In this document: positions 13,371 through 25,505 of the stretch, one piece after another
Layout of the letters: each line of letters begins with the position of its first letter
Numbering within the stretch: the first letter of the stretch is position 1
NCBI GenBank assembly: GCA_963674825.1
Contig: OY771587.1
Location: forward strand, 256,001-320,000
Origin: Candidatus Cloacimonadales bacterium
GTDB lineage: Bacteria > Cloacimonadota > Cloacimonadia > Cloacimonadales > JAIOQZ01
Length of the DNA stretch: 64,000 nt
Direction of reading: 5' to 3'
The notes under the pieces: model-generated
The model's database searches: none
Told to the model about the DNA's origin: nothing
Seen by the model: the letters and a program-made list of their open reading frames with translations, nothing else
Program-made: the position numbers and the translations under genes

Positions 13371-14876
13371 ATGTTTATCCTATCCCGTGAAGAGATGCAA
13401 GAGCTCGATCGCCACACAATGGAAGATTTCGGCATTCCCAGTTCTGTGCTGATGGAAAACGCAGGCAAGAGCTGCGCAGAGAAGATTATCGAGGATATCG
13501 AGGATGACGAACCCTTCTTCGGTATCTTTTGCGGACACGGCAACAACGGCGGCGACGGCTTTGTTATCGCCCGTTGGCTGGACAGTGCCGGCTATAGCGT
13601 CGGAATCGTATTCGTCGGCGATGAAGAAAAAATGACGCCCGAAACCCGCACCAACTACGAACTCTGCCGCAAGCTGGATATTCCCTTCTTCGAATTCGAC
13701 AAGGAGAACCTGCCCGACTTCGATATGATCATCGACGCGATCTTCGGAATCGGTTTCCATGGCGAGATGCGCGAAGAATACCAGAAAGTCATCCACTGGA
13801 TCAACGAGAGCCCGGCAGAAGTCTATGCTATCGATATTCCTTCCGGACTCGACGCCAATACCGGCGAAGGCGATTGGGCGATTGTCGCGGACGAAACCAT
13901 GACCATGGCCGCTCCCAAATACGGGCATTTCCTGTGCGACGGTGGAGCCTGTACCGGCGAACTGACCGTCATTGATATCGGAATCCCGCCACAGTTCTTT
14001 TATGAGCTGCGACCGCGAGCGAGCATCAATGAACTGCCGCCACTCCCCATCCGCACCGATTTCTCACACAAAGGCGTCTTTGGCCGCGTATCCATTTTCG
14101 CAGGTTCGCCCGGATTTTCCGGTGCGGCGGTACTGGCTTCCAGAGCAGCGCTTCGCAGCGGAGCCGGGATCATCAAGCTTTATCATACACCAGGAATGGA
14201 TACTATTTACGAGACCAAACTGACCGAAGTCATGACACATCCTATTCCCTACCTCGAATCCGGCGCACTCGACCGCGATCGGCTCATTACCGAGCACGAG
14301 AAGACCGACGCCATTCTCATAGGACCCGGCCTTGGAACCGGCGATAAAGCGATGGAGCTCATGGAATTCGTCCTCAACGGCAGTATCCCGACCGTTATCG
14401 ACGCCGATGGTATCAACTGCATTGCGCAAAACGAGACACTCCAGGAGCTTCTCAAGGAACACCCCGATGTGTTGCTCACTCCGCACATGGGTGAATTCGC
14501 ACGTCTGATGGATGTCGATCTGAGCGAAGTCGAGACCAACGTGATCGGCTTACTGATGAAATTCCATGCCGAATTCGGTTGCCCCATCCTGCTCAAAAGC
14601 AATGTCAGTGTATTCTTCGACGGCGAGCTTTTCACCTTCAATATCAATGGCAACAATGGCCTCGCGACCGGCGGTAGCGGCGATGTTCTCGCGGGAATCA
14701 TCACCTCGTTCGTCGCACAGGGACATACTTGCGACATGGCTGCTGTAGCTGGAAGCTGGTTGATGGGGTTCACCGCCGACAGCCTCGCGCTCAAACGCGG
14801 CACGGCATCCATCATTCCATCCGATATCATCGATCACCTGTTCGATTACGACTACCTCGCGCCACAAATCGACTGA
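13371..14876 (+). CDS. nnr: Bifunctional NAD(P)HX epimerase/dehydratase (NnrE-NnrD)
   Basis: LMENAG, GNNGGDG, DIPSG, HKG, GPGLG, DADG, TPHMGEF, GGSGDVLAG. Confidence 0.93.
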   Translation: MFILSREEMQELDRHTMEDFGIPSSVLMENAGKSCAEKIIEDIEDDEPFFGIFCGHGNNGGDGFVIARWLDSAGYSVGIVFVGDEEKMTPETRTNYELCRKLDIPFFEFDKENLPDFDMIIDAIFGIGFHGEMREEYQKVIHWINESPAEVYAIDIPSGLDANTGEGDWAIVADETMTMAAPKYGHFLCDGGACTGELTVIDIGIPPQFFYELRPRASINELPPLPIRTDFSHKGVFGRVSIFAGSPGFSGAAVLASRAALRSGAGIIKLYHTPGMDTIYETKLTEVMTHPIPYLESGALDRDRLITEHEKTDAILIGPGLGTGDKAMELMEFVLNGSIPTVIDADGINCIAQNETLQELLKEHPDVLLTPHMGEFARLMDVDLSEVETNVIGLLMKFHAEFGCPILLKSNVSVFFDGELFTFNINGNNGLATGGSGDVLAGIITSFVAQGHTCDMAAVAGSWLMGFTADSLALKRGTASIIPSDIIDHLFDYDYLAPQID

Positions 14877-14893
14877 TTATAGAGCTTTGTTAC

Positions 14894-14930
14894 GATCTCC
14901 GGGTAGCAATTTATTGCTCGCCCGGAGATC
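14894..14930. repeat. Intergenic palindrome (REP-like element or terminator)
   Basis: GATCTCCGGG-TAGCAATTTATTGCTCG-CCCGGAGATC nested inverted repeat. Confidence 0.55.
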
Positions 14931-15041
14931 AATCCTTACTACCACTTGTCTCTATCCGTTTCCCTCCCGATTCTCCTTGACAATCCTGAACCATTTATGT
15001 CTTTCTATTAACTGGTAAAAAACATTGTATAAACGGACATT

Positions 15042-18000
15042 ATGGGCATGAACGACCACGACATGAAAACGCGACGCAAACCGGCCAACGCCACCAGAGT
15101 GAGGGCTTATTCCTTTGGTGAAGCGGAAGTTGAACGTCCGGAGATCGAAGCAGGCGAGCTACTTGACGACCGTTATCAGATCGTCCGGAAAGTCGGCGAA
15201 GGCTCTTATGGCGCTGTGTATCAGGTGTTCGATCGCAAGATGGACATCCCAAAAGCGCTCAAAGTTTTCGGTCGTCGAGAAGAAAGCCTGCACATCATAC
15301 CCGATCTGCGTGACGAAGCTCGTACCATGGCAAGGATCAACCATCCAAACATCGTTCGTATCTACGATCTTCATGAAGACGGCGATTTCATCTACCTCGA
15401 TATGGAGTACGCCAACGGTGGTAACCTGGACAAGAATCTCGACAGCATACGCAAGAACAGCAAGATCATCCGCAAGACTGCGTTGCAGATCGCAGAAGGA
15501 TTGAAAGAAGCGCACGATCAGGGCATCGTTCACATGGATGTCAAGCCGTCCAACCTGCTGCTGGACAGCGCGCGCAATATCAAGATCGCCGATTTCGGAA
15601 TCGCCGGGCAACTTGGGCTTAAGCTCACAACCACTGCCGGCACCCCGGCCTATATGGCACCTGAGCACATCGAAGGCAATCCCGCCGACAAGCGTTCGGA
15701 TATCTTTTCCTTTGGCGTAGTACTCTACGAGCTGGTTTACGGCCATTACCCCTTCAAGCTGGATGAGAGCGACAACTATATCTACGATGTTCCCCGGCAT
15801 CTCCTTGCCGAGTCCTCCGACCTCAATCGTATCATTCTGAGGTGTATCGCGGCCAATCCAGAGCATCGCTACAACGACTTTTCGAACATCATCAGAGACT
15901 TGAATGAATCGAAAGAACTGCCAACAAAAGAAGAAGACAAACGCGGTTTTCGTGCCATATTCATGCGGCAGATGCGCGACATTGGTAGCGATCTGCGCAA
16001 AGAAACCCGCAACCTGATGATCCTGCTGATCCTGCTTCTCTTGATTATACCCTTTTACCTTCGCATTATCCGACGCCTGACCGAAGAGCAGAATCCCGCA
16101 CACATCGATGGTCCGCCCATGAGTACATCGGTCAATTTCCAACCGGATTCCAAGCTATCACCGGATCAACTGGAGCCGGGAGACCTCGTACAGCTTCGCG
16201 ACCTGCGCAAAGGTGGAGAGCCGGCCTTCGAATTCATCTACAACGGCGAAGATCCTCTCGACATCCGTTTCGAAGAAAATCGGATTTATTTAAGCGACAG
16301 GCTTGCCGGCATTCACGTACGAGACCGTAGCGACCTGCCGCTACCACCGAATCTCGATTTCGTACGCAGCGATATCGAACTAACGCAGAACGATCTATGG
16401 AACCAGCGCAATCCAAATCTGGCAGTTCACCTCGGCGAGATGGTCTCACCGCGAACCATCGAGAATCTCCCGTCCAATACACGCTTCCTGGATCTGTGGA
16501 AAAACAAGCGTATCTCCGATCTACACAGCCTTGACCATCTTGAAAATCTTGAAGGGCTCGACCTGCAAGGTGTAAGGGATTTCTATCCCGAAGGCTTGAA
16601 ACAACACGAGCGAATGAAGTGGCTAAACCTCGCAGATACTGGCCTGGAATCAGATGAATCGCTCCGAAGCCTGCAAGCATTAGAGCATCTGGATATCTCG
16701 AGAAATCGCCTGCAAAATCTCGCGACGCTCTATCGGCTTAAAGCGCTGCAGTCGGTTAAAAACGAGAGCAATTCGCAACTTCCCGAACTGGACCGCGCCT
16801 GGTTAGACGAGAAGAACCACAGCTATTACGCAGATAGAAATCAGGAACAATCCACAAAACGACAGATCCTCTGGCAGCGATCCAATGTCATGGATAAAAT
16901 CGTTTTTGGCCTTGCACTGATCGTGCTTCTGCTGGTCATATATCAGCTTTTCCGCTTACTCAGGCAAAATATTCCAACCATGATAGCAAAGAATCAGAAG
17001 AAGAAAGAAGAAGCTGTCCTGCCGCCAGAATTTCACGATCGTGTCAAGAAAGCCGACGATCAGGAGAGTGAGAATAAACTTTGGACACCAGCAGAAGACA
17101 ACGCGCTCCGTACTCTGCATGAGCTCTCCGTGGAATATCCGAACGAAAAGGTGCTTGAGAAGCGCAAAACGCAGATCCTGCGCAATGCTGAACGTAAGAT
17201 CCGGCAATATATGTCACGCGATGAATACGAACCGGCGTTCCTCACCCTTCAGCAGGTAACGGCCATCACCACCAATAACACCCTGAAAAGGTACCGCCAT
17301 CGCTGCCTCACCAACCTGGTACACGACGAACCGGTAAAGATGATCGATATCCCCGGCGGCAGCTTCACGATAGGTGACTTCGAAAGCGAATCGCTCTCCA
17401 CCGCCATCCCGTTGCATGAAGTGAATCTATCCAGCTATAGCCTCAGTGAGACCAACGTAACGAACAAGCAGTACTGCGAGTTTCTCAACGCCATGGGCAA
17501 GCATTCCGAACCTCTTTATGACTGGATCAACCTCAGCAGTCCCTACTGCCGCATCAAGAAAACCGAACGCGGCAAATACGAGCCGATCGAGCCCTATAGC
17601 TCCTTCCCTGTAATAGAAGTGAGTTGGTATGGAGCTAAGCGTTATTGTGAGTGGTTTGGCGGAAGGCTCCCTTCAGAAGCGGAATGGGAGTTTGCAGCTC
17701 GGAATCGAGGCAAGAAGATTCTCTTCTCGCAGGGAAACACTGCTGATCGCGCTAAGATGAATTTCCTGGTGGATAAAAACGACAACCTATGGCACTCTGT
17801 TTTCCCGGTTAAATCGCTGCCAGCCAACGCACTGGGGCTCTACGAAATGTCCGGCAACCTGTTGGAGTGGTGCCAGGATTTCTTCGACGCGAATTACTAT
17901 CAGGATTTGGAATCAGAAAACCCGCGAGGCCCGGAAAAAGGCAGCTTGAAATCGGTGCGTGGCGGTGCATGGTGCTTCCCATCAAAAAACATGAAAACCT

Positions 18001-18065
18001 ATTACCGCGGTTCGGCAAAACCTTCCGCGCGTAACAACTTTATCGGATTCCGCGTCGCCAGATGA
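15042..18065 (+). CDS. Ser/Thr protein kinase - TM - LRR - TM - FGE-sulfatase (SUMF1/CLec fold) multidomain protein
   Basis: GEGSYG, ALKV, HMDVKPSN, DFG, GTPAYMAPE; two hydrophobic helices; LxxLxLxxN repeats; RLPSEAEWEFAAR, GLYEMSGN..EW, RGGAW, GFRVAR. Confidence 0.88.
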   Translation: MGMNDHDMKTRRKPANATRVRAYSFGEAEVERPEIEAGELLDDRYQIVRKVGEGSYGAVYQVFDRKMDIPKALKVFGRREESLHIIPDLRDEARTMARINHPNIVRIYDLHEDGDFIYLDMEYANGGNLDKNLDSIRKNSKIIRKTALQIAEGLKEAHDQGIVHMDVKPSNLLLDSARNIKIADFGIAGQLGLKLTTTAGTPAYMAPEHIEGNPADKRSDIFSFGVVLYELVYGHYPFKLDESDNYIYDVPRHLLAESSDLNRIILRCIAANPEHRYNDFSNIIRDLNESKELPTKEEDKRGFRAIFMRQMRDIGSDLRKETRNLMILLILLLLIIPFYLRIIRRLTEEQNPAHIDGPPMSTSVNFQPDSKLSPDQLEPGDLVQLRDLRKGGEPAFEFIYNGEDPLDIRFEENRIYLSDRLAGIHVRDRSDLPLPPNLDFVRSDIELTQNDLWNQRNPNLAVHLGEMVSPRTIENLPSNTRFLDLWKNKRISDLHSLDHLENLEGLDLQGVRDFYPEGLKQHERMKWLNLADTGLESDESLRSLQALEHLDISRNRLQNLATLYRLKALQSVKNESNSQLPELDRAWLDEKNHSYYADRNQEQSTKRQILWQRSNVMDKIVFGLALIVLLLVIYQLFRLLRQNIPTMIAKNQKKKEEAVLPPEFHDRVKKADDQESENKLWTPAEDNALRTLHELSVEYPNEKVLEKRKTQILRNAERKIRQYMSRDEYEPAFLTLQQVTAITTNNTLKRYRHRCLTNLVHDEPVKMIDIPGGSFTIGDFESESLSTAIPLHEVNLSSYSLSETNVTNKQYCEFLNAMGKHSEPLYDWINLSSPYCRIKKTERGKYEPIEPYSSFPVIEVSWYGAKRYCEWFGGRLPSEAEWEFAARNRGKKILFSQGNTADRAKMNFLVDKNDNLWHSVFPVKSLPANALGLYEMSGNLLEWCQDFFDANYYQDLESENPRGPEKGSLKSVRGGAWCFPSKNMKTYYRGSAKPSARNNFIGFRVAR

Positions 18066-19873
18066 TCAGACGAACCTGTATCTTTATCATGCTGCTCTTA
18101 GCAGTTACAATCCTGATAGCACAAGACGGCTACAAGCTGCGCGACATCCGGTTCGTTGGCAACGAATCCATCTCCACTTCCGAGCTAAAAAAACAGATGG
18201 AGCTCAAAGAAGACGATTTCCTCTACCGGCTTCAGTTCTGGAAGGAAGACCGCCTATTCGACGAACCTGCACTGGAGCGCGACACTACGCGCATTCTATA
18301 TCATTACCGAACAGAGGGATTCCTCGACGCGAAGCTCTCCTTGGAGCTCGAAACCCTGCACGAAAAACAGCGAGTCTATCTCACCATCACGATCGATGAA
18401 GGCGAGCCGATCCTGATCGACAGGATCACGACCTCATACTCACCTGCAGATTCCAATCGCTTCCGTACGATCGTGCAGGAAGTGAAAGCACCCCTTCAGC
18501 CTGGTGAACGCTTCCGTGATGCCGATCTAATGTCACGCCAGGAAAAGCTGCGAACGGGCTTCGAGGAAAACGGCTATCCTATGGCGGAAGTAGAGTTCAC
18601 GCTCGATGTATCGCCCGAGCAGCACACAACGGATATCCGGTGGGATATCAAGCCGGACAAACACTGCAAGTTCGGCAAAATCAGGCTCACCGGGCTCGAA
18701 AACGATATCGATGAATACGTGCTTCGGCAGACGGAATCCATCGATAGCGGAGAATACCGGCAATCGGCGCTGAAAACAGCACAACGTCGCATCTACGAGT
18801 TGGGGATGTTCAAGTCGGTGACGGTGAAATCAATGCTGAGCGAAGAAGAAAACGGCGAAATCCCCATCGAGATCATGATGATCGAGTCACCACGCCACAA
18901 TCTAAAAGTCGGTGTAGGCTGGGGTATCGAGGATCGTTTCCGCGTCTTCGCGGACTACCGCAAGCTCGGTTTTCTCGGCGGTGTTCGCAGACTCCATATC
19001 TACCTCAAGCACTCCTATCTTGAGCCGGTTAATGCCAGCCTCAAGCTCGTGCAGCCGGACTTCCTGAACTCCAACGGCGACATCAGCATTAGTCCCTACT
19101 TCAAGCAGCAACGTGAGCTGAGCTATACTATCAACCGCCTGGGCGCGACGCTTGGTTACCAGAAATCTTTCACAGGAAATATCGCTGGTTACTCCAACGT
19201 CACTTACGAAAAGAACGACCTGGTGGAAATTCGACTTTCGGACGAGGATGTCTTTGGCGAAACCGCTGATGACATCTATGAGAAAACCGTCTTCACCGTC
19301 GGCAGCTTCTACGACTCGTCGGCTCCACCGCTGGACCCCGAAAAAGGCGTCTACGCCGGCGTAATCTATTCCGTTGCCCCCATCCGAGAGGTCAGCGACT
19401 ATGAGTTCTACAAGATCGTGCTCGACACCCGCGCCTATCAGCGGCTTGCAAGTTGGATGGTTCTTGCCCTGAAACTCAAGGGTGGCGCAATGGAGCCTTT
19501 CGGCGAAAGCCACGCCACGCCGGTGGAGGATCGCTTTTACGCAGGGGGCAGCTACTCGGTGCGCGGCTGGCAACGCTATCAACTCGGCCCCAAGAACGAT
19601 AGCGGTTATCCCATTGGCGGGAACAGCATGATCGAAGGTAGCATCGAGCTGCGTTACCCCATCTACGACATCTTCTCGGGCGTTCTCTTCCTGGATGGCG
19701 GAAATGTCTGGAAGGATTCTTACGTTTACATCGCAGACCAACTGCATTTCGCCAGCGGCGTGGGCCTGAGAGTTAATACTCCGGTAGGGCCCATTCGGCT
19801 CGACTTTGCTTCACCGGTTTTCGAGAAAAAGAAGGAGCTGCAGGTTCATGCAAGCATCGGGCACGCCTTTTAA
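18062..19873 (+). CDS. tamA: Omp85 family outer-membrane protein (TamA/BamA-like)
   Basis: Signal peptide, POTRA-like repeats, RFYAGGSYSVRGW, GVGLRVNTPVGPIRLD, C-terminal F. Confidence 0.85.
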   Translation: MIRRTCIFIMLLLAVTILIAQDGYKLRDIRFVGNESISTSELKKQMELKEDDFLYRLQFWKEDRLFDEPALERDTTRILYHYRTEGFLDAKLSLELETLHEKQRVYLTITIDEGEPILIDRITTSYSPADSNRFRTIVQEVKAPLQPGERFRDADLMSRQEKLRTGFEENGYPMAEVEFTLDVSPEQHTTDIRWDIKPDKHCKFGKIRLTGLENDIDEYVLRQTESIDSGEYRQSALKTAQRRIYELGMFKSVTVKSMLSEEENGEIPIEIMMIESPRHNLKVGVGWGIEDRFRVFADYRKLGFLGGVRRLHIYLKHSYLEPVNASLKLVQPDFLNSNGDISISPYFKQQRELSYTINRLGATLGYQKSFTGNIAGYSNVTYEKNDLVEIRLSDEDVFGETADDIYEKTVFTVGSFYDSSAPPLDPEKGVYAGVIYSVAPIREVSDYEFYKIVLDTRAYQRLASWMVLALKLKGGAMEPFGESHATPVEDRFYAGGSYSVRGWQRYQLGPKNDSGYPIGGNSMIEGSIELRYPIYDIFSGVLFLDGGNVWKDSYVYIADQLHFASGVGLRVNTPVGPIRLDFASPVFEKKKELQVHASIGHAF

Positions 19874-22800
19874 GCGCTTCGCCACGCGATTCATTAAAGC
19901 GCTGATCGCCATCGTGCTGATCGTGCCGCTCGTCGCGTGTTTCCTCTACCTGATGCTGCAAGCCGGTTGGCTCAATCCGATTATTCGCTATACCAGCGTG
20001 AAAATCGCCAACTCTATCTTGGATGCGGAACTCTCCATCGAGTCAATCCACGGCAATCCTATGCAACACCTTGAGATATCCGGCATCGAGCTTCGGAAAG
20101 ACGATCGCAAGCTGGCCGGTATCTCGCTGATCCGCCTCGATTACAACCTCGACCACGCCCTGGATATGCAGTTCACCATCAACGAGATCCTAATCGATTC
20201 GGTTTATGCCTACGCGGATCAGCTACCGGATAGCACCTGGAACCTCGCCCATATCGTGAAACCCTCCGAGCCCAAGCCTGAAGAACCGGATTCCCTATCG
20301 CAACCGCGCAACCTGAGCCTGCTTCTTCACTCGCTGCGGATCACCAATTCCAGCTTCGACATTCACGCCCTCGATCCGCGCATCCCGAAGCAAGTCCGCG
20401 ACTTCAATCTCGATTTCAATTTCGCGATGTTACCGAACCTTATTCACGCCAGCGTGAACAACATCTCGTTCACCGCCGACAGCTTGCACCTGAAGACGCT
20501 CCGAACAGAATTTACATGGCAGGATTCCACGCTGCTTCTTCAAGACTTCCTGCTCGAGACAGACCGCAGTAAAATCAAAGCCAACGGGCAATATAGCGAT
20601 GCTGCATCCAACATCAAACTGCGGTTGACGCCTTTTGATTTGCGAGATGTAGAAGCATTTCTGCCGGAATTCCAGCACCCTGACACATTATTTCTGTTCC
20701 TGGACGCACAAACCCAGGAGACAGAGCTGACATGCCATTTATCGTCATATATAGGTGAAAACCATTTTTCGTGTTCTCTCAAAATGCCCGATTACCAAAG
20801 CCTGGATAACTTCTCGATTTCAATCAACAGCTCCAAACCTGACTTACTCAAGGACTGGGGGATTCCTTTTTCCTGCCAATTTGCTACTATCAAAGTTGAT
20901 AACACCGACGGCCTTATTCCCGATGGGAATGCCAAGATCAGGATTCAGGGGACCCGTATTCAATATGAGCAGTACAAGCTGGATATTGCCACGCTGGACG
21001 TCGATTACACACCCGATATGCAAAAATTCACTTTAGATGTTGGTGAACCTCTGGGCAACTCACTCTACATGAAAGGCAACATCGATGCTTTTAATCCCAA
21101 ACGTCCTTATAAATTGAATGGCAATCTCTCTTTCAATACGCGGCGAGAAAAGATTCCACTGCTTCCTTTTGATGTTTCGGGAGGATTGAGATTCACTGCG
21201 AATGGAGAGCTACGCTCTTTCAAGTATCTTCTGACACGATTCGACATAAATATCAAAAACCTGACAATCGACGACTATCGAATAAAGACCGGAACAATTT
21301 GGATCAACATCGAAGATGGTCGCTACGAGCTGGCCAAGTTCGACATCAACACTGAAGATGGCGGCGCAACAGGCATGGGATACGGTTCATTCGAAGGTCC
21401 GCATCACATCGAGTTCGATACCAGCCTGCCAGACTTATCGAAACTCCAGAGTCTGACCGGCCTGGACAACCTTGCCGGCAGCCTGGACCTCTCTGCCAAA
21501 GTAGATGGCATGCCCGATTCCATGCGTTTCTCAGCAGATGTAGAAGCGTCCGACGCCCAGGTGAACGATCTATCCATAGAGAAAGCTCAGCTTCACGCCA
21601 ATGGCACGATCGACGGCAAAGACATTGATGCCGAAGCCACAGTTCAGCTTCAAAACATCCGATACAAGGATCTCACTCTGGAGCAATTGTCGCTCGACGG
21701 ATCCTATCATGACCAGAAAGCTTCGGCACAGCTCGAAGTGAAACAGAATCGGGAGCGCTACGGAGCGCTTCATGCCACGTACAAGCCCGGCGAGATCGAG
21801 CTTCCCATGCTCGACTTCCACTTCGACGGAGAGTACTGGCAATTGGCGCACGATTCGACGCGCGTCCGCTTCAACAGCGATGGCTATTTCATCAACGATT
21901 TCTCTCTTGCCTCAAATGAACAGCGCATCGGCGCAAAGGGCTATTACCGGCACGACGGCTCGATGGACGCGGATGTACGCATCGATTCGCTCGACCTCTC
22001 CATCCTCAACAGCTTCCTGCCAGAAGAAACCGAAGCAGACGGGATTCTGAACCTGGACATGAAGCTTCGCGGCAACCTCGATCACCCGGATGCCGATGCC
22101 ACACTGCGGCTGAATAATCTCGCCTGGGGACCATACGAAATCGCCGGTGTGAATGCCAACCTCGCAACAGCCGATAACTCGGCCAGCTTTCACTCAGCCG
22201 TGCGTTTCACTACCGATGAGCAAATTACACTCGATGCCCGAGTACCGCTTGGGCGCTTCCTGAAGAACATCCCGCTACCAGCTGATTCCCTCATCACCGC
22301 CAACGTGGTGAGTGATTCCATCGACATCGGCTTTGTAAATGAATTTACCGATCAGATCGCGCTGGACAAGGGCCATCTGGTCATGGATATCTCGCTCGAA
22401 AGCGATCTCAGGCAGCACAATGTGGAAGGCCGCATCAAAGTGACAGGACAAGCACTCACCATCCGCCAACTCAATACACGCTACGAGGATTTCTTCCTTG
22501 AACTTCACGGCGACAACAGCGCTGTCCGACTCGACACCCTCTATGCGGAAGGCGGCTCGGGAACGCTGTCCGCCACCGGAACGATCAACCTCGGCGACAT
22601 GAAGGAGAAATTCGTCGATTCTTTCGACATTCAGCTTCTGGCAAACCACTTTCAGTTCTCACGCAAGCGGCAACTGCGTCTGGTCTCCGATATGGACATC
22701 CACCTCTTCGGAGACATGGAGCGACAGAATTTCGACGCTGATGTGAAAATCATCGAATCGCGGGTTGATATCGACCAGTTTACCGGCGGATCGGGGCCAG

Positions 22801-23663
22801 CGCTTCCCAGCCAGAAACCGCTCCTTGTGCAGGCATTGAACGGGACAACGGATGTTGAACCGCCGCAGAAAAGAACAGAGATAAACATCTCGAAATCCAG
22901 CTATGGTACCGCCAAAGTAAATATCCCGCGTAACAGTTGGATTTATGGTAAGGATATGTCCGTCGAGTATTCGGGCGACATCAAGGCTGTTAAAGAAGCG
23001 GAGAATATTTATCTGACCGGAACTGTCGCCACCATCCGAGGCTACTACAACCTCTATGGACGCAAATTCACGATATCCGAAGCGAAAGTCACCTTCACCG
23101 GCGGCAAAGAAATCGATCCGATCCTGGATATAACCGCCGATTACACCTTCCGGGACATCGAAGAGAATCGCCGCACGCTGAGCGTTGTTCTCACCGGACG
23201 TGCATCCGATCCGCAGGCGGAATTCCTGCTGGACGGAACGCAGATCGAACAAGCTGACGCGATTTCGTATATTATCTTCAATCGCAGTACCAGCGAATTG
23301 ACCCAGAACGAGAAGAGCTCCATGAACGAAAGCAGTTCCAGCAGTGGCTTTGCGCAAGGGCTTATCATCAAGCAACTCTCCTCGCAACTTACCCGTTCCA
23401 TCCAGGAGCAGCTCGATCTGGACGTACTGGAAATCCAGGGGAACGAAGACCTCAGCAAGACCGCCATCGTCGTAGGCAAATACATCACGAATCGCCTCTT
23501 CCTGAGCTATGAAAGGCGACTCAACAATAGCAGTTCCAGCGATACCGAGATCGAAATCCTGACACTCGAATACCAGATCAACCGGGCTTTTTCGATCCAG
23601 GCGACGCGCGGAAACGACAGTTCCACCGGCATGGATCTCATCTGGAAGTATGAACATAAATAA
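19848..23663 (+). CDS. tamB: Translocation/assembly module TamB (AsmA-like, DUF490 C-terminus)
   Basis: N-terminal membrane anchor, long beta-rich body, C-terminal GKYITNRLFLSYE...G.DLIW; directly follows tamA. Confidence 0.82.
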   Translation: MQASGTPFKRFATRFIKALIAIVLIVPLVACFLYLMLQAGWLNPIIRYTSVKIANSILDAELSIESIHGNPMQHLEISGIELRKDDRKLAGISLIRLDYNLDHALDMQFTINEILIDSVYAYADQLPDSTWNLAHIVKPSEPKPEEPDSLSQPRNLSLLLHSLRITNSSFDIHALDPRIPKQVRDFNLDFNFAMLPNLIHASVNNISFTADSLHLKTLRTEFTWQDSTLLLQDFLLETDRSKIKANGQYSDAASNIKLRLTPFDLRDVEAFLPEFQHPDTLFLFLDAQTQETELTCHLSSYIGENHFSCSLKMPDYQSLDNFSISINSSKPDLLKDWGIPFSCQFATIKVDNTDGLIPDGNAKIRIQGTRIQYEQYKLDIATLDVDYTPDMQKFTLDVGEPLGNSLYMKGNIDAFNPKRPYKLNGNLSFNTRREKIPLLPFDVSGGLRFTANGELRSFKYLLTRFDINIKNLTIDDYRIKTGTIWINIEDGRYELAKFDINTEDGGATGMGYGSFEGPHHIEFDTSLPDLSKLQSLTGLDNLAGSLDLSAKVDGMPDSMRFSADVEASDAQVNDLSIEKAQLHANGTIDGKDIDAEATVQLQNIRYKDLTLEQLSLDGSYHDQKASAQLEVKQNRERYGALHATYKPGEIELPMLDFHFDGEYWQLAHDSTRVRFNSDGYFINDFSLASNEQRIGAKGYYRHDGSMDADVRIDSLDLSILNSFLPEETEADGILNLDMKLRGNLDHPDADATLRLNNLAWGPYEIAGVNANLATADNSASFHSAVRFTTDEQITLDARVPLGRFLKNIPLPADSLITANVVSDSIDIGFVNEFTDQIALDKGHLVMDISLESDLRQHNVEGRIKVTGQALTIRQLNTRYEDFFLELHGDNSAVRLDTLYAEGGSGTLSATGTINLGDMKEKFVDSFDIQLLANHFQFSRKRQLRLVSDMDIHLFGDMERQNFDADVKIIESRVDIDQFTGGSGPALPSQKPLLVQALNGTTDVEPPQKRTEINISKSSYGTAKVNIPRNSWIYGKDMSVEYSGDIKAVKEAENIYLTGTVATIRGYYNLYGRKFTISEAKVTFTGGKEIDPILDITADYTFRDIEENRRTLSVVLTGRASDPQAEFLLDGTQIEQADAISYIIFNRSTSELTQNEKSSMNESSSSSGFAQGLIIKQLSSQLTRSIQEQLDLDVLEIQGNEDLSKTAIVVGKYITNRLFLSYERRLNNSSSSDTEIEILTLEYQINRAFSIQATRGNDSSTGMDLIWKYEHK

Positions 23664-23684
23664 CCGCATCTGGGCCATTTTGAT

Positions 23685-25505
23685 ATGAACACAAATAGTC
23701 GCCCCATCTTGCTTCTGCTGGTTGTTCTCGCAGCTTCCTGGCTTTTCGCTGACGATCCTGAACAAGCCACGGAACCCCTGATCAACGAAAAGAAGGTACT
23801 CGATACTTTTCGTGAGATGTCCAGCAAAGACACCTGGAGCTCCCGCCTGCTGCGTAGCATCTTCATCTTTGAGCGCGAGACGAAAAAGACCGACGAGAGC
23901 ATGCCCGAAGATCCGATTGAATCCTTCCTCAACTATCAGGGCAAGACCATCGGTAATATCCGCATCCTCGTGCTGGACGTCTTCGGTACCTCGGTGAAGA
24001 ATCTTTCCAGGAAGCCGGATTACTGGCTGGAAAAAACCGGAAACGCCCTGCACGTAAATACACGGAAACGAATCATACGCAATCAACTTCTTTTCCATAC
24101 GGGCGACAAGCTCGATCCTCTGCTCATCGCAGAATCCGAGCGTATTCTCCGTAACAACCGCTATATCTACGACGCCCGGATCAAGGTCTTTAAAAATCCT
24201 GACGGCTCGGTCGATCTGGATGTCGTCGTACGCGATGTCTGGACACTGAAGGCGGAAGTCGCCATGTACAGCGTCGATAAGTGGAATGTCTCGATCTCCG
24301 ATGAAAACCTGGCCGGCCTCGGCGGAAGGCTTCACACAAAGGTGAAGTTCGATCCCGAGTACAAAGATGGCTGGAACTGGGATGCGAGCTACAGGCAGCA
24401 AAATCTTTTCAAGGACAACATCACAGCCGAGGTTTACCGTAAAGTGAAAGTGGGCAGCAGAAACAAGGGATTCGGCATTAACAGGGAGTTCAAGTCGTCA
24501 CTCATCCGTTGGCTATATGGCACTAACTTTGAGTGGAATCGTAACGAGGTCAGCATCCTCCGTGACGATACTGACCCGGTCGTGGAAGAGGTACGCTACA
24601 CCAGACAAGACCTATGGCTGGGGCGCACCATCCCGATCAATATCGAGAACGAAGAAGGCATGGCAAATTATATCACCGGTGCAGCTCGCGTTATCCGTAC
24701 CGATCAAACCCTGAAAGCTGCTTACGATCCCGAGGGCCATATCCAGGACTCATACATGGGCGTATTCAGCCTGGGATACCTGATACGATCGTTTCGGAAA
24801 GTCAGCTACCTGTTTCGTTTCGGTGTCACGGAAGACGTCCCCGTTGGGAGTAAGCTGGAACTCACTACGGGCTTTGAAGACGGCAGCAAAAATGATCGCA
24901 CCTATTATAGCCTCTATTATCTCTACAGCCTCTACGAGCAGGATTACGGCTATTTCTCGGGTGAGCTGTCCGCATCGGGATTCAAACGCAGCAGCACCTG
25001 GGAAAGCAGGCAGTTTGAGACAAGCCTCAAAGGTATTTCCCGGCTACTTTATATCAAGGATTACCGAATCCGTCAATATGCGATGCTACAATACAACGTC
25101 ATCGAAAACCCGATCTACTCTAACCAGATGCTGTCGATCAGCGACAAAGAAGGGATTCGTGGCCTGAGCAGCGACAAAAGCGGCGACAAGCGTCTGCGAT
25201 TGAACCTCGAAACCAATTACCTGATGCCGTTCCAGTTCCTTGGGTTCAATTTCTCGGTAAGTGTTTTCGGCGATTTCGCGCTCCTCGCACCCGAAAACGT
25301 GAGCATTTCATCTAGTAAAGTCTATCAAGGATATGGCATCGGACTGCGTTTTAAAAACGAACATTTGGTGTTTAAAACCATCGAGATCTTCCTGGGTTAC
25401 TACCCCGTGATGGACAGCAGTCAGGATTGGAATCTTTTCTCACGCTCAGCCAGCTACTACAACTTCAGTGGCATGGGCTTCGGCAAACCGGAGGTAATCG
25501 AATAA
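23685..25505 (+). CDS. Putative Omp85/POTRA-like outer-membrane protein of unknown function
   Basis: Signal peptide; T..RIIRNQLLF..GD..D...IAESERILR POTRA-like segment; alternating aromatic beta-strands; IRG and GIGLRF motifs. Confidence 0.62.
   Translation: MNTNSRPILLLLVVLAASWLFADDPEQATEPLINEKKVLDTFREMSSKDTWSSRLLRSIFIFERETKKTDESMPEDPIESFLNYQGKTIGNIRILVLDVFGTSVKNLSRKPDYWLEKTGNALHVNTRKRIIRNQLLFHTGDKLDPLLIAESERILRNNRYIYDARIKVFKNPDGSVDLDVVVRDVWTLKAEVAMYSVDKWNVSISDENLAGLGGRLHTKVKFDPEYKDGWNWDASYRQQNLFKDNITAEVYRKVKVGSRNKGFGINREFKSSLIRWLYGTNFEWNRNEVSILRDDTDPVVEEVRYTRQDLWLGRTIPINIENEEGMANYITGAARVIRTDQTLKAAYDPEGHIQDSYMGVFSLGYLIRSFRKVSYLFRFGVTEDVPVGSKLELTTGFEDGSKNDRTYYSLYYLYSLYEQDYGYFSGELSASGFKRSSTWESRQFETSLKGISRLLYIKDYRIRQYAMLQYNVIENPIYSNQMLSISDKEGIRGLSSDKSGDKRLRLNLETNYLMPFQFLGFNFSVSVFGDFALLAPENVSISSSKVYQGYGIGLRFKNEHLVFKTIEIFLGYYPVMDSSQDWNLFSRSASYYNFSGMGFGKPEVIE

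Follow-up and report, generated by a model that had tools for sequence, protein, structure and literature searches.

The window analysed here is a 64,000-nucleotide stretch of one Candidatus Cloacimonadales contig. On its forward strand it carries a gene that joins a Ser/Thr kinase, leucine-rich repeats (LRRs) and a formylglycine-generating enzyme (FGE)-fold domain in one protein, and three envelope genes follow it. The features are as follows.

15042..18065, + strand: kinase-LRR-FGE gene, a single open reading frame of 1007 aa
15174..15911, + strand: Hanks-type Ser/Thr kinase domain (aa 45-290), from Pfam match, alignment and fold match to PknB/Stk1
15531..15539, + strand: catalytic loop H-M-D, non-RD (aa 164-166), middle residue free across the family
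15591..15665, + strand: activation segment, DFG to APE, 25 residues, sequence not conserved
16014..16070, + strand: transmembrane helix TM1 (aa 325-343), Kyte-Doolittle 2.88, predicted in-to-out signal anchor
16089..16337, + strand: beta-rich N-terminal cap (aa 350-432), AlphaFold2 strands
16353..16781, + strand: LRR solenoid (aa 438-580), predicted periplasmic, with five canonical rungs and two degenerate ones
16785..16886, + strand: C-cap helix and poorly conserved stalk (aa 582-615)
16896..16952, + strand: transmembrane helix TM2 (aa 619-637), Kyte-Doolittle 2.48, predicted out-to-in stop-transfer
17019..17321, + strand: helical domain (aa 660-760), in which E728 and E730 are invariant
17337..18062, + strand: FGE-sulfatase (C-type-lectin fold) domain, predicted non-catalytic and cytoplasmic
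17760..17798, + strand: family-specific FGE motif with invariant N907, D914, W917, H918 and S919, a candidate binding site
17958..17978, + strand: RGGAWCF, whose C978 is kept in 17/18 orthologues and lies close to the first copper cysteine of the FGE pair
18062..25505, + strand: TamA-like, TamB and POTRA/Omp85-like genes, the first overlapping the kinase stop codon

The domains follow in the order kinase, TM1, beta-rich cap with about seven LRR rungs, TM2, helical domain and FGE-fold domain. Eighteen orthologues of 997-1057 aa could be aligned with the protein end to end at 30-72% identity, and all 18 kept the whole architecture. A full-length orthologue was found in 20 of 177 Cloacimonadota genomes, one copy each, and in each genome searched of seven families; paralogue expansion of the gene was not seen. 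Word-indexed protein searches under-report the family, as they recovered only four genus-level relatives; a scan of all GTDB genomes with generic FGE patterns contained at least one full-length relative among the matches listed. On present evidence, the family does not extend beyond part of a single uncultured order. A promoter and terminator scan of 14700-15200 found none.

The sequence-only reading had proposed a Hanks-type kinase with HMD at 15531-15539, helices at about 16010-16070 and 16900-16960, four to five LRRs between them at 16470-16770 and a C-terminal FGE-sulfatase domain, and each of these elements was confirmed. The Pkinase profile matched aa 45-277 (E 5.8e-55), with HMD at aa 164-166, and the FGE-sulfatase profile matched aa 766-1007 (E 2.2e-53). 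The protein had only two Kyte-Doolittle peaks, TM1 and TM2; the same two and no others were present in 18/18 orthologues, with TM2 values of 2.25-3.64. LRR_4 matched aa 525-563 (32.5 bits against a cut-off of 27) and was matched in 15/18 orthologues at E <= 0.5. AlphaFold modelling, which that reading had suggested as a check, was applied to the ectodomain and supported the LRR fold (AlphaFold2 pLDDT 90.7, pTM 0.89), with two degenerate rungs and the cap preceding five rungs at aa 480-577. The best structural matches were LRR proteins: internalins and one Leptospira LRR protein in Foldseek, and FBXL17, FBXL2 and designed LRRs in VIA-align (top Z 14.0, rmsd 8.0 over 206 residues). The cap resembled PEGA by eye only; PEGA was not among the families listed, the hhalign probability to a PEGA protein was 0.3, and this assignment was not confirmed. 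The two-pass architecture had not been recognised as described, and we likewise found no description of it in the literature searched.

Because an even number of hydrophobic segments returns the chain, the C-terminus would lie on the kinase side. In the 30-residue flanks of TM1, K+R were in excess on the N-terminal side in 16/18 orthologues; the charge bias around TM2 was weak, with C-in favoured in 10/18 at 10 residues and in 0/18 at 20-30. We infer an orientation in which the LRR ectodomain is most likely periplasmic and the kinase and FGE domains cytoplasmic, as the sequence-only reading had proposed.

K74, H164, D166, N171, D184 and F185 were invariant in 18/18 orthologues, alphaC E92 was kept in 15/18, and the window's own kinase retained every catalytic motif. 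The triad of VAIK Lys, HxD Asp and DFG Asp, as defined in the accessible text of bioRxiv 2025.01.12.632604, was present as K74, D166 and D184 in 18/18. By this sequence criterion, the protein is predicted to be a catalytically competent Hanks-type kinase. In three orthologues the alphaC Glu was lost, DFS was present and the Gly loop was degenerate, and two further orthologues showed DFS together with loss of K168; therefore, some members of the family may catalyse only weakly or be able to do without catalysis. NF033483, the PknB/Stk1 model, scored 207 bits against a cut-off of 450, on the kinase part only, and profile searches matched no PASTA repeats.

The middle residue of HxD was M, Q, L, R, C, T, H or K across the 18 orthologues, of which 17 were non-RD and four had Cys; two relatives, G006 and P0121, kept HRD. 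The sister kinases described below were non-RD in 15/15 cases, with an LRR region in none in the scans run, and in the phylum as a whole about 55% of the matches to the catalytic-loop motif were non-RD. Among the nearest outside kinases, 109/116 were HRD, and their activation segments had a median of 29 and a minimum of 26 residues (n=111/116). The HMD loop had been read as a signature of pattern-recognition receptors. This part of the sequence-only reading did not hold, because the position is free to take eight residues and because LRR-less sister kinases and about 55% of the phylum's motifs are non-RD. The partner genes, out of sight for that reading, are the more telling result.

The FGE domain was the best-conserved region (mean pairwise identity 54% vs 38% for the kinase). 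Alignment to bacterial FGE (6muj/2q17) and the family columns showed that the second copper cysteine is absent, and the CxxxxC cysteine pair of the formylglycine-generating enzyme (SUMF1) was not found. The curated EgtB, SenA, OvoA, PvdO and GldK models all scored far under cut-off, on the FGE part only. The C-terminus was also considered as a DGR target and rejected: the last 265 nt had no second copy in the source genome (G000) beyond chance, and the C-terminus is highly conserved. G000 encodes four other FGE proteins, two of them secreted; its secreted FGE proteins include PEGA-FGE and CsgG-PEGA-FGE forms. The conserved helical domain between TM2 and the FGE domain was absent from the earlier reading, and no informative Pfam family matched it.

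The kinase gene is part of a newly found module with three partners that are themselves uncharacterised, the CsgG-like, FHA and secreted-protein genes. A helical FHA protein of 730 aa occurred in 20/20 genomes with the kinase and 12/157 others, a CsgG-like membrane protein in 19/20 and 5/157, and a secreted protein in 15/20 and 0/157, counts that overstate the association because the genomes are kin. The genome with no CsgG-like match, G019, is 93% complete. In 10/20 genomes the CsgG-like gene immediately followed the kinase gene; the kinase-CsgG-FHA order was intact in G015 and G010, and G000 keeps a CsgG-FHA-secreted gene order at C1:1046209-1050161 (CsgG-like C1:1049517-1050161, FHA C1:1047309-1049498, secreted C1:1046209-1047309). 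The FHA protein retains G-R, SxxH and NG, which we take to be FHA motifs. A PP2C query from G000 matched in 11/20 genomes, and the PP2C gene, at C1:2557405-2558190, is non-adjacent in G000. In genomes without this kinase, CsgG-like and FHA genes stood beside PP2C and kinase-FGE genes, and 7/9 of these kinase-FGE proteins had no TM helix. The secreted companion and the LPP20-like protein of such genomes gave an hhalign probability of 1.0% and one HMM match at E 9e-6.

In kinase trees, the soluble kinases of the module were sister to the kinase-LRR-FGE kinase (SH-aLRT 98), and the grouping held when 23 more phylum kinases were added (SH-aLRT 94); kinase branches were long. The trees held 12 family rows, with 20 rows in the set with outside kinases and 10 in a later run; domain-length filters or subset choice removed 6 of at least 18 orthologues. 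In FGE trees, the window's FGE domain was not recovered as sister to the module's soluble FGE domains. An origin in which a soluble kinase-FGE protein gained an inserted TM-LRR-TM part fits the kinase trees; the FGE trees contradict one another, and an AU test (p 0.43) neither rejected this origin nor demonstrated it. The cytoplasmic kinase and FGE pairing appears native to the module, because the mostly TM-less sister kinases sit with CsgG-like and FHA genes.

The best explanation is that several Cloacimonadales families have retained the protein by vertical descent as a Ser/Thr receptor kinase of the inner membrane. We consider it probable that this lineage-specific receptor feeds a kinase-FHA-PP2C pathway, with envelope-state signalling as the likely role. 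TM1 would export the cap and LRR, and TM2 would return the chain, so that the kinase, helical domain and FGE domain face the cytoplasm. The LRR may bind a fixed envelope protein of the cell itself; gene order and co-occurrence point to the CsgG/LpoB-like membrane protein or the secreted protein as the likeliest target. Ligand binding would cluster the receptor, and oligomerisation, instead of an Arg-phosphate contact, may switch the kinase, which is non-RD and has a short activation segment. A phospho-threonine on the receptor or a partner would then recruit the 730-aa FHA protein, a likely substrate or adaptor, and the PP2C phosphatase would reset phosphorylation, with the FGE-fold domain as a putative non-enzymatic docking or dimerisation module. 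More tentatively, and with some doubt, we can imagine a four-part pathway of eukaryote-like logic, consisting of a two-pass LRR receptor, a CsgG-like co-receptor, a secreted ligand and an FHA effector, in which the ligand joins kinase and lectin-fold domains in the cytoplasm and catalysis is optional in some lineages. Such optional catalysis has been shown for plant EFR.

The protein might instead be a bacterial pattern-recognition receptor convergent with FLS2/EFR/XA21, in which the LRR recognises something foreign (the surface of a phage, predator or epibiont, or the effector of a competitor) and the kinase and FGE domains launch defence. It couples a non-RD kinase with an LRR ectodomain, loss of HRD is unusual among the nearest outside kinases, the loop Cys of four orthologues recalls EFR (PMC8463890, accessible portion), and FGS/FGE domains have been proposed to act as intracellular invader sensors (PMC8195603). 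However, the non-RD state is common in the phylum and in sister kinases without an ectodomain, the gene is kept in every searched genome of seven families, and the LRR is not hypervariable (within-genus identity 67% vs 74% for the kinase), nor does the FGE C-terminus have a template repeat in G000. PADLOC matched only the kinase domain, with nothing on the three companions; for the anti-phage kinase systems PD-T4-6, MADS and BREX PglW, only kinase-domain matches were found (MAD6 148.5 bits against a cut-off of 460, PglW 68.5 against 990). Single copy and conserved LRR are indirect signs that seem to argue against foreign-pattern binding and defence, and we regard an immune receptor as very unlikely. 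The evidence favours an envelope-signalling pathway not described before over an immune receptor of the plant type, and it does not show plant-like innate immunity in bacteria. A somewhat better, still unlikely, case can be made for a scaffold in which the conserved function rests with the membrane complex and the FGE domain in the cytoplasm, and the kinase, under relaxed selection, drifts towards a pseudokinase. The higher FGE identity, the long kinase branches and the three orthologues without alphaC Glu, DFG Gly and an intact Gly loop fit this, whereas invariant K74, D166, N171 and D184, the intact motifs of the window's protein and the FHA partner in 20/20 genomes do not.

There is a slight chance that TM2 does not return the chain or that a helix is otherwise placed, which would make a periplasmic FGE domain a built-in TagR-like activator. 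TagR, a known FGE-fold kinase activator, is periplasmic (PMC13713981, available text), G000 has the secreted FGE proteins mentioned above, and the TM2 flank charges are ambiguous; yet two strong hydrophobic segments and no more separate kinase and FGE in 18/18 orthologues, and the sister kinase-FGE proteins are mostly TM-less. Least credible is a dedicated regulator of the adjoining TamA/TamB/Omp85 outer-membrane assembly genes. Here the kinase stop codon overlaps the TamA-like start, and the order is shared by three other genomes of the genus, but it was missing at 16/16 other orthologue loci examined. A TamA/TamB link as conserved function was ruled out, as these are neighbours in one genus only and lie outside the conserved module.

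The known Ser/Thr receptor kinases of bacteria mostly consist of a kinase, a single helix and an outside sensor, and the two-pass form with an outside LRR loop and a second inside domain broadens this plan. PknB/Stk1, the best NCBIfam and fold matches, likewise have an N-in kinase, a TM helix and an extracytoplasmic sensor; the Cloacimonadales protein differs in lacking PASTA, in its two passes and second cytoplasmic region, and in its non-RD loop and short activation segment. Plant EFR, FLS2 and XA21 also combine an outside LRR sensor with an inside non-RD kinase (PMC8463890, accessible text), by analogy only. Their N-terminal ectodomain, single pass and C-terminal kinase are not found here: the domain order is reversed, with two passes, about seven rungs, a PknB-like kinase and a non-RD state independent of the LRR.

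Kinase-FGE fusions with an N-terminal Hanks kinase and a C-terminal FGE-fold domain include the chlamydial DUF323/NirV kinases (PMC1262709) and the Proteo1 family (bioRxiv 2025.01.12.632604), both from the accessible text, and many ESM Atlas clusters of 576-734 aa. The Cloacimonadales protein has about 400 more residues, as TM-cap-LRR-TM-helical domain, and chlamydial kinases did not group with its kinase in the kinase trees. It offers a tractable case for the role of non-catalytic FGE-fold domains beside kinases, a very common unexplained fusion, and within the family the kinase motifs grade naturally from intact to decayed. With a candidate co-receptor, ligand and phospho-binding adaptor named, pathway reconstruction in vitro or in E. 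coli is feasible.

In the P. aeruginosa H1-T6SS pathway (TagR-PpkA-Fha1-PppA), an FGE-fold domain activates a kinase-FHA-PP2C pathway via protein contacts, according to the available text of PMC13713981. PpkA, PppA, Fha1, TagR and TagQ likewise comprise an inner-membrane Hanks kinase, FHA, PP2C, an FGE-fold domain and envelope partners. Kinase, FHA, PP2C and FGE fold were all present in our case, with PP2C unlinked in G000; unlike in the H1-T6SS pathway, the FGE domain belongs to the kinase polypeptide and is predicted to be cytoplasmic, and the sensor is the LRR loop between two helices. The T6SS structural family searched, VipB/TssC (PF05943), had 0 matches in G000, which is 99.6% complete. 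The pairing of kinase and LRR is not unique, because single-pass kinase-TM-LRR fusions, still uncharacterised (P0025, P0137), exist elsewhere; these share the kinase, TM helix and LRR-rich C-terminal part and differ in length (2200-2400 aa), in their 12-30 LRR motifs and in having neither a second TM helix nor FGE. An LRR kinase of P. aeruginosa is also listed in the accessible part of PMC1262709.

The gene and its 1007-aa product comprise the following features.

Features of the kinase-LRR-FGE gene and protein
15042-18065, + strand: kinase-LRR-FGE gene (ORF, 1007 aa)
15531-15539, + strand: HMD catalytic loop (sequence)
aa 45-277: protein kinase domain (Pfam)
aa 325-343: TM1 (hydrophobic peak)
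aa 474-572: LRR models (Pfam)
about aa 619-637: TM2 (hydrophobic peak)
aa 766-1007: FGE-sulfatase domain (Pfam)

The order of kinase, TM1, LRR, TM2 and FGE proposed in the sequence-only reading was borne out by Pfam, hydrophobic peaks and AlphaFold2 models; however, its list lacked a helical domain at aa 660-760. The protein has only these two hydrophobic peaks. The whole-protein AlphaFold2 model (mean pLDDT 74; C-terminal FGE part poor) matched PknB/Stk1 kinases, and in the model of the inter-helix segment (pLDDT 90.7) approximately seven LRR rungs lie between a beta-rich cap and a C-cap helix, with LRR proteins only among the structural matches listed.

Of the 177 phylum genomes searched with a middle-region profile, 20, including G000, which carries this gene, contained full-length matches (E <= 2e-74), and 38 others had LRR-level matches only (E >= 2e-19). 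The 20 genomes are every searched genome of seven families; with the same profile, the kinase was absent from all 76, 41, 15 and 10 searched genomes of four others. The best 150 matches among 1.84 billion cluster representatives contained at least 15 family members (14 near-complete, one fragment), a lower bound because LRR-rich proteins crowd that match list. For relatives with a name, the label is Candidatus Cloacimonadales or Cloacimonadota. The 18 aligned orthologues were 30-72% identical to the query, with identical domain order and exactly two hydrophobic peaks in each.

K74, H164, D166, N171, D184 and F185 were invariant in the aligned orthologues. A bacterial kinase atlas (bioRxiv 2025.01.12.632604) defines pseudokinase status by the catalytic triad; by that definition, the protein is not a pseudokinase. 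The 25-residue activation segment is unconserved in sequence. The non-RD loop noted earlier is real and unusual, as 109 of the 116 nearest outside kinases have HRD; however, it is not tied to the LRR. The middle residue varied among the 18 orthologues (Leu and Cys in four each, Gln in three, Met and Thr in two each, Arg, His and Lys in one each), and was again Arg in a further relative, P0121. The sister kinases of the module were non-RD in 12/12 and 15/15 cases in two overlapping sets. A catalytic-loop DNA pattern, which misses some loops including that of the kinase-LRR-FGE protein itself, matched 246 sites across the 177 genomes, against 112 for its Arg-coded version (one a Ser codon); about 55% were non-RD by hand count. 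Thus, constraint on the Arg is relaxed in Cloacimonadota kinases generally, whether or not they carry an LRR.

Outside the genus, a 204-217-aa gene directly 3' of the kinase encodes a signal peptide, a CsgG/LpoB-like domain (hhalign, 88%) and two C-terminal helices; it adjoins the kinase gene in 10/20 genomes. In G000 the FHA and secreted-protein genes come after it; kinase, CsgG-like and FHA genes share one row in G015 and G010.

Companion genes in G000, contig C1
1046209-1050161 (locus L069:10210-14159), minus strand: row of CsgG/LpoB-like, 730-aa helical FHA and 367-aa secreted (no family) genes
1049517-1050161: CsgG-like gene

This row is co-inherited with the kinase: FHA, CsgG-like and secreted proteins occurred in 20, 19 and 15 of the 20 kinase genomes versus 12, 5 and 0 of 157 others, in counts where the models were built partly from the counted genomes and kin genomes are not independent. 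In G018, G031, G013, G141 and G053, companions lie beside PP2C, LPP20-like and kinase(-FGE) genes, and the kinases are sister to the kinase-LRR-FGE protein (SH-aLRT 88, 98 and 94 in three trees, without bootstrap). The clusters (L077, L226, L229, L230, L278, L279) are expanded and contain non-RD kinase(-FGE) genes beside PP2C, FHA, LPP20-like and CsgG-like genes; some of the kinases carry zinc ribbons at the N-terminus or several helices at the C-terminus. These clusters are a second version of the module. The CsgG-like partner (alignment A7) has a near-invariant (T)KGY motif in a short loop between its C-terminal helices, which, speculatively, could be a cytoplasmic docking or phosphorylation site.

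The cysteine pair of FGE is needed for formylglycine chemistry. Aligned with a solved bacterial FGE, our domain retains a single cysteine, the other being absent; therefore, this chemistry is unlikely. The domain forms its own clade in trees, fell under every cut-off of the curated EgtB, SenA, PvdO and GldK models, and has invariant N907, D914, W917, H918, S919, R989 and N999. It is best read as a putative binding module.

From domains, conservation and gene associations, we consider it reasonably probable that the protein is a self-ligand receptor kinase. The periplasmic LRR would engage a self envelope protein, receptor clustering would activate the kinase, phospho-threonine would recruit the FHA protein, PP2C would reset phosphorylation, and the FGE domain may dock or dimerise. 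Among working models, the P. aeruginosa TagR/TagQ-PpkA-Fha1-PppA pathway comes nearest; in it, according to PMC13713981, FGE-fold TagR with TagQ likely dimerises PpkA, PpkA phosphorylates Fha1 and PppA opposes it. We found no T6SS sheath gene (PF05943) in G000; therefore, the output probably differs.

No hydrophobic segment precedes the kinase, which is therefore predicted to start in the cytoplasm. K+R was richer N-terminally of TM1 in 16/18 orthologues (6.7 vs 2.7 over 30 residues) and C-terminally of TM2 over 10 residues in 10/18 (opposite in one), a TM2 bias absent over 20-30 residues. By default, we read TM1 as a probable signal anchor and TM2 as stop-transfer, placing the LRR in the periplasm and the helical and FGE domains in the cytoplasm. 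FGE-fold domains are often exported, in G000 too, which counts against this placement. In the module, 7/9 related kinase-FGE proteins lack a TM helix, independently supporting a cytoplasmic FGE. We regard a periplasmic one as very unlikely.

The FGE domain and membrane complex could instead be the conserved function, with the kinase under relaxed selection. Conservation peaks in FGE (mean pairwise identity 54%, against 38% for kinase and 28% for LRR), and three orthologues (L036, L037, L038; genomes G012, G051, G028) have lost the alphaC Glu, with DFS and a degenerate Gly loop, suggesting natural drift towards pseudokinases; their Lys/Asp/Asn/Asp are intact. Two others have DFS, and Asn replacing K168. 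Beside the residues invariant across the family, we judge this account unlikely. A defence receptor whose LRR senses a foreign ligand is more doubtful still; PMC8195603 proposes that FGS domains, often accompanied by DGRs, sense invaders in conflict systems, and no template repeat for the FGE domain was found in G000. Regulation of adjacent Tam genes seems highly improbable. The kinase gene overlaps the first of these:

18062-25505: TamA-like, TamB and third POTRA/Omp85-like genes in one row

The third gene has a weak POTRA/BamA match only, and the TamA-like/TamB neighbourhood is confined to the genus, in 3/19 other orthologue loci (a twentieth, a fragment, lies outside the comparison).

The proposed self-ligand receptor belongs with membrane Ser/Thr kinase-FHA-PP2C systems, and its two-pass LRR plan and partners are undescribed: no description of architecture or module was found in the literature searched, which covered few subscription journals. 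The main text of the kinase atlas (bioRxiv 2025.01.12.632604), showing architectures present in >20% of a family, leaves LRR unmentioned and names FGE only for the Proteo1 family. Entries of a 2005 survey (PMC1262709) include kinase-DUF323 proteins of chlamydiae and, for P. aeruginosa, a single LRR kinase. ESM Atlas neighbours were plain kinase-FGE clusters of 576-734 aa (homologue P0010), and databases contain single-pass kinase-TM-LRR proteins. P0025, P0137 and P0054 (2200-2900 aa) comprise two such receptors and one LRR-rich protein with a C-terminal FGE.

Clear Hanks kinases and FHA proteins number two each in G000, with a single PP2C match. A secreted CsgG-PEGA-FGE protein (L086:6977-8941) adjoins a 1595-aa protein without Pfam match (L086:1906-6690; together G000:C1:541905-548940), downstream of a BamA/TamA-like gene. 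An 1835-aa HKD kinase-TPR-GAF-histidine kinase hybrid (L087:4123-9627; G000:C1:2776122-2781626) has related HKD kinases in another family of the order. A 274-aa FHA protein (L276:967-1788; G000:C1, near 1100-1950) resembles, by eye, a cyclic-nucleotide-binding domain in its N-terminal part.
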